From a virus (taxonomy: Duplodnaviria; Caudoviricetes): DNA of 64,000 bases. Location of the stretch: positions 1-64,000 of IMG/VR virus record IMGVR_UViG_3300028591_000141. The stretch is one strand, 5' to 3'. Both the position numbers and the translations under genes were made by a program. The notes beneath the pieces were generated by a model. The model worked only from the letters and a program-made list of their open reading frames with translations, was not told the origin of the DNA and made no database searches. The stretch's first letter is position 1, and each line of letters starts with the position of its first letter. Below are positions 24,091 through 26,263 of the stretch, piece after piece.

Positions 24091-24501
24091 TTAATCATTT
24101 GACAGTTTGACATCAAACCATCCGCTGACAATGTTCTCCGGATACAATTTGATTTCATATTTGTACTTGTTTACTTCTTTTGTTTCGATCTGCTCAACAA
24201 TGTATGTTGTATCCTTTGACAGGTGGGCATAATTCAGAATGTATTCCCCTGGAGACTTTTCTATCGTAATGTTCAGGTCTCCGTCACTGTCTGTCTTAAT
24301 GGACAGAAGTCCTGTGATCTGCATCATTGTCTTGTCTGTCCGGGTGTTCAGCACTGTGATTCTCCGGCGCACGTTGAAGTCATCTGCCTCACGCTGGAGA
24401 TTGTGCCGGACGTTGTCTGCCTGCCTGCATGAAGACAGGACAAATACCATCACAATCGTAATTAAAACCAGCATTAAAGTCTTCCATTTCTTCATGTTCA
24501 A
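24091..24501 (-). CDS. Phage lipoprotein
   Basis: Signal peptide with lipobox LSSC; 'EADDFNVRRRITVLNTRTD'. Confidence 0.75.
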   Translation of the reverse strand: MNMKKWKTLMLVLITIVMVFVLSSCRQADNVRHNLQREADDFNVRRRITVLNTRTDKTMMQITGLLSIKTDSDGDLNITIEKSPGEYILNYAHLSKDTTYIVEQIETKEVNKYKYEIKLYPENIVSGWFDVKLSND

Positions 24502-24961
24502 ACAGCTCCTTTCAGTGCGTTCACAATATCATTACCTCTGTAAATTACAATCATGCTCGGAAACGGTGCGTTCCATTTCGCGTTTCCGTATTTCAACCTG
24601 CCTCTGACAAACCTGATTTCCGCCTTCCCGTATACATACTCATGAAACCATTTCGTGTCTGTACGCGCTGGAATCAGCATGACCGCAGTACCCCCACTAT
24701 GGAATGTTCAAGGCACTTGCGGCACCATGCGTCCATGCCTTTCCCGTACGGAGGATTGCACCACACTGTCTCGCCGGTCCAGTCATGTAAAAGTCCGTCC
24801 TGTTCCTTCGTGAAGTACCGGCTACATTTCGCGTTCTCTGCCGTTGCGCACACATCCAGGGTGAACCTGAATTCATCGTTCAACCTGTCAAACAAATCCT
24901 TCGGCGTTTCCCATTCATCCGTAGAAGAGGAAAACATGCCGTCGTTCAGGTACTTACTCAA
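24498..24961 (-). CDS. Phage N6-adenine DNA methyltransferase, split by -1 frameshift at G5 (24691-24695)
   Basis: 'DEWETP...FTLDVCA...VWCNPPY' in ORF ending 24674, continued by 'GTAVMLIPARTDTKWFH...APFPS' in -1 frame. Confidence 0.8.
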
Positions 24962-26263
24962 ATCTGATAAAGTCCTTTCCGTATATCTGATTACAATCCT
25001 CAAACACTTTCCGCATTCCGAGCCCTTCCTTGCTCGGCACCCAGATCTTCTTCGGGTTCCAGTTTGTCCAGTCTCCGTCCATTTTCGAAGCTGCCGGATC
25101 GTAGTTCTTGTTATCCACCCACTGCCCGCCGTTCATGCAGTACTCGTACTGCCGCGGATGCGTCTTTGCCAGTCGCTGAAACCGTGTCTCTCCCTTTTCC
25201 AGGTGCGCGCCGAATCCGCAGAAAACGCATCCAGTCCGTTGGCATCCGGTGCACTTCAGTTTGCATTCAATACCCGGGAGCGGCTCGTAGTAGAATCCGT
25301 TTTCATCCACCGCCATGACGTCTCCGTATACGCTGCATATATCAATGTGGTACATCCGGATGTATCGGAGCACGTCCTGCTCAGTCCACAGGCTCAGCGG
25401 CTGGCTGACTTTCTTTCCCTCAAATGAGTTGCATCCATGCCGGACCCATGCCTGTGCTCTGATACGGCTCTCTTCCGCCATAGTACCGATGTATGGATAC
25501 CGTTTCGTTTTCCGCTGGTATTTACCCATCGGGCTTTTCTTCATCACGCTGCAACACTGGTGGCTGATCATGAACTGTGTTTCCTGGCACAGCGGAAGCC
25601 ATTTCAGTTTGTTGAACTGGCTCTTTGCCGAGGAGCTGACGCCTGAACCTGTTGATTCTTCTGAGCTCTCTGGTGCTGTACCACCCCCCCCATGAATTTT
25701 CCGGGACAGGCGTTTGCCCGTTGAGGTTTGCCCGCCGCCATCCGGTTCTGCCTCGCAGCGATTCTTTCCGTATCGTCCCGTTTCCCATGGAGTTCCGTCC
25801 GGCTTCGTTCGTAGTGGAGTGTAACTGCTCTGTCCGGACATCTCTTTCCGCTTGAAAGAAGGTCGCTGTACCCCCCCCCATATTGATTTTCAAGGCTTTG
25901 CGGGACGATACGTCTTGCGAAATGGATCGCTTCCGCGACTTCCTTGCTGATGATCGGATAGCCATATGTGCTGATCACCTCGCTGAAACTCATCTTCGGC
26001 CGGACGAATTCGGCACCCATGCTCCTGGCAAACGCCTGAATCTCCGGATACTCTAGCCCTGTGTTTGCGAACACCAACGGAACGTCCGGATACATACCGT
26101 GCACCAGGTCTGTCAGTACTGTGCTGTCCTTTCCTCCTGAAAAAGAAATGCACACGTTCCCGTCAAAGTGTTCGTACCATTCCCGGATCCGTTGCTCCGC
26201 CATCGTGATCTTTGCCTGCAGCGGGAGGCTCTGAAGCTGGCGAAGCAGTATCCTGTCTCTCAC
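24954..26263 (-). CDS. PAPS-reductase-family (PP-loop) protein, split by -1 frameshift between G9 and G8 tracts
   Basis: 'SFSGGKDS...FANTGLEYPE' in 25604-26263; 'CCSVMKK...IGTMAEES...W...DV...RTGCVFCGFG' in 24954-25841. Confidence 0.85.

Follow-up and report, generated by a model that had tools for sequence, protein, structure and literature searches.

Paired poly-G tracts around a cassette open in three frames: a probable slipped-strand contingency locus in a phage PAPS-reductase-fold gene

The window analysed here is a stretch of 64,000 nucleotides from a 98,779-nt phage contig. It contains a gene of the PAPS-reductase fold that is split into two reading frames as assembled and carries two poly-G tracts around the split. 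Is this gene broken, is the assembly wrong, or is the split one state of a switch? The initial annotation, made from the letters of the window alone, had proposed that slippage at the tracts may switch the gene ON and OFF and also among three variants of a probable DNA-modification enzyme. We therefore followed the locus from its reading frames in the window to its relatives in viral, genome and metagenome collections. The coordinates of all features are collected in Table 1.

Table 1. Features of the PAPS-reductase-fold locus and its neighbour, given as positions of the window.
Feature	Position	Strand	Details
Whole PAPS-reductase-fold gene (phrog_424 type)	24954..26263	-	GTG start at 26263; split into two frames as assembled
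N half up to tract 1	25880..26263	-	PP-loop SGGKDS; PAPS_reduct profile positions 2-50
Tract 1	25871..25879	-	G9, then TACAGC; GGGY in N frame
Cassette between tracts	25692..25870	-	179 nt, stop-free in all three frames; low-confidence loop
C-frame weak motif copy SFKRKEMSGQS	25827..25859	-	7.0 bits vs shuffle threshold 6.8
N-frame linker motif copy ERSRTELHGKR	25778..25810	-	family consensus RKRxELxGxR; PSSM 29.7 bits
Third-frame peptide GRTGWRRANLNGQTP	25708..25752	-	conserved in 8 loci, differences mostly synonymous in third-frame phase only
Tract 2	25684..25691	-	G8, then TGG TACAGC
C half, -1 frame	24954..25683	-	remainder of PAPS-reductase fold, profile positions 80-172; Cys-rich CTGCQRTGCVFCGFG segment
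Stop codon closing N-frame product (219 aa)	25604..25606	-	allele as assembled
Dam (N6-adenine methylase) gene, downstream	24498..24937	-	frameshifted at G5 (24691-24695), then TACTGC

The N half comprises the first 128 codons of the gene and the C half the last ~240 codons. The N half lies in an ORF of 219 aa (26263-25604) and the C half in the frame of the ORF 25841-24954, so that the offset of -1 between the halves noted initially is borne out by the ORF frames. Both poly-G tracts were also found on the coding strand as annotated, and they are the sole G/C runs longer than 6 in the whole contig. Each tract is held in a direct repeat of the form ATG-G(8-9)-(TGG)-TACAGC, tract 2 being interrupted as G8-T-GG. 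A direct count of TAA, TAG and TGA in the cassette between them gave zero in every frame, in agreement with the initial description. Such a triple-open segment is not expected from composition: its probability was 0.0002 in mononucleotide and 0.0023 in dinucleotide shuffles, and 0.009-0.019 when the protein of one frame was fixed and the codons were resampled. The surrounding interval 25605-25891 (287 nt) is the longest stop-free stretch on the minus strand of the contig. In the assembled allele the cassette is read in the N frame, reading is still in the N frame past tract 2 and it ends after 219 aa, which is an OFF state. One G added at either tract, or one G removed at both, would turn this allele ON; these are the three routes to a full-length protein that had been listed as -1 at tract 1, -1 at tract 2 or +1 at both, and all three were confirmed. 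With one more G at tract 2 the N-frame reading runs on into the C half, which is what the relatives P0002 and P0003 show.

We then assigned the gene to a family. Both halves match PF01507 above the cut-off. The closest full-length relative, P0002 (436 aa, 94% identical in the C half), matches phrog_424 with E = 2.9e-49 and is likewise found in Pfam PF01507. By this profile match across both halves the gene is placed in the phage PAPS-reductase-like family (PHROG 424, PF01507). A search of GenBank phages returned a single weak match of 137 nt. Membership in the assimilatory PAPS/APS reductases (CysH) was rejected: the best NCBIfam score was 44.7 bits against a cut-off of 154, P0002 lacks the catalytic C-terminal ECG[LI]H motif, and the fold alone is held in common. 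P0002 is far under the curated cut-offs for CysD as well as for CysH. DndC and SspD were rejected too, with PADLOC scores of 13.7 bits for DndC and 25 bits for SspD that come from the PP-loop region only, and so was BrxP, whose likeness to P0002 is confined to the same region. No Dnd or Ssp partner genes were found beside the gene, its neighbours being Dam and small ORFs of unknown function. The link to DndC suggested in the initial annotation thus finds nothing in its support beyond the common PP-loop. Judged from the neighbouring methylase genes, the product probably works alongside the adjacent Dam in modifying DNA or countering restriction.

An AlphaFold2 model of P0002, built on 61 homologs, was confident outside residues 121-216 and showed a fold like that of CysH/APS reductases (Foldseek TM-score 0.55-0.61, normalised to target). 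Residues 121-216, the linker holding the cassette, had block-mean pLDDT values of only 29-56. Low values here next to a confident remainder suggest that the tracts sit in a long loop inserted in the fold, and in the model this loop is probably disordered.

To place the window among its relatives, we gathered 170 loci from viral, genome and metagenome collections, of which 120 were unique and contained both halves. They lie on contigs binned to Ruminococcus, Oscillospiraceae and similar taxa. Simple sequence repeats (SSRs) were present in the linker of 90 of the 120 loci, at a density of 4.9 per kb of linker versus 0.087 per kb in the flanks. The repeats are of different types: poly-G of 7-11 nt (usually followed by TAC, giving the peptide GGGY), (GA)n, (CA)n, (CAGA)n and poly-C. 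At the very site of the window's tract the relatives carry either G7-11 or (GA)5-15. The linker itself is 96-425 nt long, and tandem linker modules, each starting with GGGY, occur in 1-3 copies. Whether the two halves are in frame depends on the tracts. The 30 linkers without a tract are nearly all in frame (28/1/1 loci in frame 0/+1/+2), whereas linkers with one tract (47 loci; 17/15/15), two tracts (35 loci; 12/13/10) and three tracts (8 loci; 3/4/1) are spread over the frames, which adds up to 32/32/26 for all repeat-bearing loci. ON alleles are therefore not enriched but make up about one third, and this even spread also fits weak selection on the gene. In all 60 of the 60 out-of-frame loci both halves are nevertheless intact open frames.

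Tract length also varies between very close relatives. Loci at least 95% identical to one another differ in their tracts: in a cluster of 21 near-identical members (GA)n spans 11-27 nt, in L029, L030, L032 and L170 both the (AG) tract and G9 versus G8 vary, and L138 and L140 carry (AG)26 with G10 and (AG)24 with G11, respectively. Intact halves together with tract variation among near-identical loci argue for real and recent changes in tract length rather than for decay or an error in one assembly. The family thus displays the features of an SSR contingency locus, namely an intragenic repeat of hypermutable length, near-identical genomes that vary in the tract, and frame shifts with the gene intact. 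The changes in length are probably reversible. A further recurrent poly-G (G7-10) was seen inside the C half at an invariant GGQW, at about position 3471-3474 in L003, L004, L006 and L016-L018 and at position 1263 in L042, where the C half switches frame at this tract. L012 and L034 contain tandem PAPS-reductase-like paralogs, both halves being matched twice about 1.1-1.4 kb apart.

In the window's own lineage, too, both tracts vary. Their states were deduced from the protein sequences of P0002, P0003 and P0123-P0132, whose N domains are nearly identical to that of the window; whole-fragment BLAST identities range from 69 to 100%, lowered because the cassettes are read in other frames. With the cassette in the N frame, reading continues after tract 2 in the C frame and gives full length in P0002 and P0003, in the N frame as in the window in P0122 and P0123, and in the third frame in P0124, P0125 and P0126, the last two groups being truncated. 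With the cassette in the third frame, P0127 and P0130 pass into the N frame and are truncated, whereas the more distant P0007, P0012 and P0019 pass into the C frame and are full length. P0131 and P0132 read the cassette in the C frame, continue in the third frame and are truncated. Six of the nine possible tract states were hence found in independent assemblies, from which it follows that both tracts vary in nature. The window's own state is among them more than once, since P0122 (2 member sequences, on a 3.6-kb contig) is identical to the truncated 219-aa protein and P0123, a relative of 90% identity, shares its tract state. As to the proposed switch among three variants, all three cassette readings do occur in lineage proteins, but intact full-length ORFs are on record for two of the three (N frame and third frame), the C-frame cassette appearing in this lineage in OFF combinations only.

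If the cassette is to be read in more than one frame, its openness should be a property of the family. We scored openness strictly between two tracts in 46 unique inter-tract segments with a median length of 99 nt. All three frames were open in 26 of them (57%), two frames in 15 and a single frame in 5. The expectation was 0.9% from composition-matched shuffles and 6% from coding pieces of the same length taken from the same genes. After clustering, 19 of 34 cassettes were triple-open (binomial P = 5e-15 versus the 6% null); since the cassettes are related by descent these statistics are partly dependent, which clustering reduces without removing it. The first 99 nt past the last tract were triple-open in 13 of 64 cases, versus 17 of 24 for cassettes of that length. 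The check set out initially, whether homologs retain the tracts and the triple-open frames, thus turned out in favour of the proposal on both counts, by the repeat-bearing loci and the triple-open cassettes counted above. A cassette open in one frame only between two tracts would leave 1/9 of the states ON, a triple-open one 1/3; among multi-tract alleles 12 of 43 were ON. At least seven full-length multi-tract alleles (L007, L010, L029, L042, L097, L141 and L165) read the cassette in a frame without the family linker motif, and L001 and L102 in the motif frame. Full-length alleles with the cassette in a motif-less frame show that compensating double shifts occur.

We also asked whether the alternative frames carry conserved peptides. 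The consensus of tract-less homologs contains two linker motifs, RKRxELxGxR and WxxxRRxxLxG. A PSSM was built for the first and copies were counted at 12 bits or more. Copies in two or more frames were found in 26 of 88 SSR linkers, in 1 of 30 tract-less linkers and in 0 of 118 shuffles. The pattern of one motif copy per frame fits about 30% of the repeat-bearing linkers and, weakly, the window, whose C-frame copy barely passes the shuffle threshold (Table 1) and whose third-frame copy is weak as well (9.7 bits versus 6.8); P0131 has a better C-frame copy, FKRIEMLGQR, at the site of the window's SFKRKEMSGQS. The third-frame peptide GRTGWRRANLNGQTP gave a second line of evidence. Between the window and L092 its differences are 7 synonymous to 1 non-synonymous in its own phase and 1 to 7 in each of the other phases; for the other six loci we counted 5-8 synonymous differences in its own phase versus 0-2 in the other phases, with 3-5 non-synonymous ones. 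Most assembled alleles have the N domain in another frame than this peptide, and since it was kept all the same, it must be translated often enough. As far as sequence comparison goes, both findings, the motif copies in several frames and the mostly synonymous changes in an alternative frame, show that selection has not been limited to a single frame.

An extreme case is L135. After its (AG)8 tract a 46-nt unit occurs three times in tandem, in copies that look perfect, and each copy has a different frame for YRKRTELLGQRTKAN. Every reading frame there gives the same three peptides in rotated order. In the tract-less, in-frame locus L092 one unit of about 30 nt occurs twice and is read as ARQNRMAESE and then as HGRTGWRRAN in one ORF, so that two phases of one sequence are found in one protein. 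Because each frame has a copy of the conserved motif, the three versions of the enzyme look functionally redundant rather than clearly diversified, on the evidence of these peptides.

Taken together, we consider it likely that this phage PAPS-reductase-fold gene behaves as a slipped-strand contingency locus, and that the frame-tolerant cassette within it provides alternative loops in addition to ON/OFF switching. The enzyme would have a large, poorly ordered loop inserted in its fold that carries two hypermutable poly-G tracts, and slipped-strand mispairing in DNA replication would add or remove a G at either tract. The summed shifts of both tracts then decide whether the C half is translated or not. 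With 179 nt apparently kept stop-free in three frames and conserved linker motifs spread over different frames, a shift introduced at one tract can be offset by the other, and the full-length enzyme made after such a compensated slip would contain any one of three alternative loops. We infer that length changes are frequent and reversible within a population and that all three isoforms would be active. A stronger form of this reading, which we hold tentatively and a little short of even confidence, is an evolved three-register cassette with out-of-phase copies of an essential motif, which would combine an OFF toggle with three functional full-length isoforms, recur in many phages of gut and rumen Clostridia and extend to methylases. 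The likely benefit would be bet-hedging, with a modification enzyme that may be useful against some host defences and harmful against others; such a role for a modification or anti-defence enzyme is suggested by analogy with T2 agt and with the phage PAPS reductase that is reported to counter Dnd.

Other explanations of the split gene have to be weighed against slippage in the DNA. Since long runs of G are prone to error and a G run is also where the adjacent Dam gene is broken, a homopolymer miscall in this assembly could conceal an intact phage gene (e.g. with G9 at tract 2), whether or not the tracts of the family vary. The same truncated protein and the same tract state recur in P0122 and P0123, however, relatives show other states too, and the Dam break falls where L013 has G9 and is itself out of frame. 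Three candidate pairs of overlapping ORFs in the window were checked crudely and gave no PHROG sign of a split gene, and contig-wide split-gene screens for homopolymers at frame switches and for overlapping same-strand ORFs returned mostly ordinary gene junctions. We regard a miscall as unlikely. Recoding, either by RNA-polymerase slippage or by -1 ribosomal frameshifting on G GGG GGG, would let every DNA allele give some full-length protein, making the DNA frame of little consequence. At tract 2 a slip of -1 would re-pair perfectly and give the same product as a G9 allele, and the random spread of frames among relatives would be tolerable if expression were independent of frame. Yet the direction of the offset is not conserved, frames 0, +1 and +2 being about equally common, unlike in programmed frameshifts; many relatives have (GA)n or (CA)n tracts, where slippage is not expected; and polymerase slippage is best known on A/T runs. 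RNA structure after tract 2 was not significant (z = -1.14), the cassette was unstructured (z = 0.09) and there was no Rfam match. A programmed -1 ribosomal frameshift was rejected for want of a conserved direction and of a downstream stimulatory structure, and recoding in general appears very unlikely.

The loop could also be dispensable and its content neutral, with accidental repeats, dead out-of-frame alleles and an openness that merely results from T-poor composition. Its low model confidence, its very variable length, a T content of 14% and the missing enrichment of ON alleles would all suit this explanation. Composition-matched shuffles are triple-open in about 1% of cases against the 57% observed, though, and neither the intact halves of every out-of-frame locus, nor the motif copies and synonymous signature in alternative frames, nor the recurrence of different repeat types at the same site are accounted for, which makes neutrality highly improbable. 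Finally, the 188-nt unit between the ATG-G(n)-TACAGC repeats might be an insert, be it an intron, a small mobile element or a bypassed gap, whose removal restores the frame; it has direct repeats on both sides, and as 188 = 2 mod 3 its exact removal would join the halves in frame. The closest full-length relatives translate through this unit, it has neither an Rfam match nor excess RNA structure, and the direct repeats are explained by the tandem GGGY linker modules of the family. An intron, mobile insert or bypass was consequently rejected, and we give this explanation hardly any credence.

Slippage at DNA repeats may concern the neighbourhood of the gene as well. One G added at the G5 run of the Dam gene restores VGGTAVMLIPARTDTKWFH. 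In L013 the Dam gene has G9 followed by TACTGC at the same codon and is out of frame too, while L034 has no tract at that codon and is in frame. In related phages poly-G tracts were found in neighbouring C5, N6/N4 and Dam methylase genes. Beside the PAPS-reductase gene, C5-cytosine methylase genes with five (L027:1178-1926) and four (L034:4526-5254) G8-G9 tracts appear in the assemblies as a succession of short ORFs. In contrast to the cassettes of the PAPS-reductase gene, the segments between their tracts do have off-frame stops, and multi-tract switching may affect the target-recognition regions of these methylases. In other neighbouring genes (L001:3818, L017:4112 and L031:3702) a G run is directly followed by TAA or TAG, so that one tract register terminates right there. 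Apart from this, nearly the same sequence of about 30 nt around a T7 run, with few mismatches, is present towards both ends of the 98.8-kb contig (190-196 and 98096-98102), which may be a terminal repeat that has diverged, or else a duplicated gene.

In bacteria, phase-variable methylases are a classic case, and to our knowledge repeat-driven switches of phages have been shown in few cultured systems only. In the Helicobacter pylori fucosyltransferase genes futA and futB a poly-C tract is combined with a downstream -1 frameshift cassette. As in our locus, the frame is set by a tract and can be regained at another site further downstream, so that more than two protein outcomes are possible. In futA/futB, however, this other site is a translational slippery heptamer, whereas our locus has another mutable DNA tract in that role and keeps the intervening stretch open in all frames. 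Phasevarions are formed by phase-variable mod and hsd methyltransferase genes of Haemophilus, Neisseria and Helicobacter (PMC7383803, PMC11868660). They share with the phages studied here repeats in DNA-modification genes, the Dam, C5 and N6/N4 methylase genes of related phages carrying poly-G too, but are bacterial chromosomal regulators with one tract instead of a viral gene cluster with two tracts in a PAPS-reductase-fold enzyme.

Contingency loci of phages are already known. As summarised in PMC12823448, which cites Sorensen et al. 2021 (Cell Rep 35:109214), Campylobacter phages have hypermutable intragenic poly-G tracts whose length varies and switches the frame, giving rise to subpopulations. 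A long intragenic poly-G of variable length that switches the frame of a phage gene is found here too. According to that summary the tracts lie in receptor-binding genes and the host itself uses poly-G switches, whereas here a DNA-modification-type enzyme in phages of gut and rumen Clostridia is concerned, and poly-G is interchangeable with (GA)n or (CA)n and paired around a cassette open in three frames. T2 agt and T4 rIIA are further examples (Gomez, Barrick and Waters, bioRxiv 10.1101/2025.10.21.683753). T2 agt resembles our locus as a phage DNA-modification gene with polymerase slippage at a short repeat and bet-hedging versus host defence; both T2 agt and T4 rIIA, however, have single short homopolymers of 6 or more bases with simple ON/OFF switching, and are without the compensating second tract, frame-tolerant cassette and multi-frame motif copies present here. 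A phage PAPS-reductase-like protein is reported to help a Vibrio phage to evade host Dnd (Piel et al. 2022, as cited in PMC13551039). Going by its description there, it is comparable to the window's protein in family, by the phrog_424 profile, and in the location of its gene in a variable accessory region of the phage. The account in PMC13551039 mentions no repeat switch, and an anti-Dnd role of the window's protein would follow by analogy only. Our literature search found neither a PAPS-reductase-fold gene with repeats in its loop in many phages of gut and rumen Clostridia, nor free exchange of poly-G and dinucleotide repeats at one site, nor a paired-tract cassette open in three frames with out-of-phase motif copies.

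Repeat switches occur in DNA-modification genes throughout a family of uncultured phages from gut and rumen. What distinguishes them are the paired tracts, the three-frame-open cassette and the multi-frame motifs, with selection acting, by the comparisons above, on several frames of one DNA stretch. The frequent calling of the PAPS-reductase gene as two fragments in metagenomes is thereby explained, and caution is advised against taking such gene splits as pseudogenes or sequencing errors. If the three-register reading is true, the locus would be a viral counterpart of a phasevarion. The switch predicts mixed epigenetic states in phage populations, which could shape host range.
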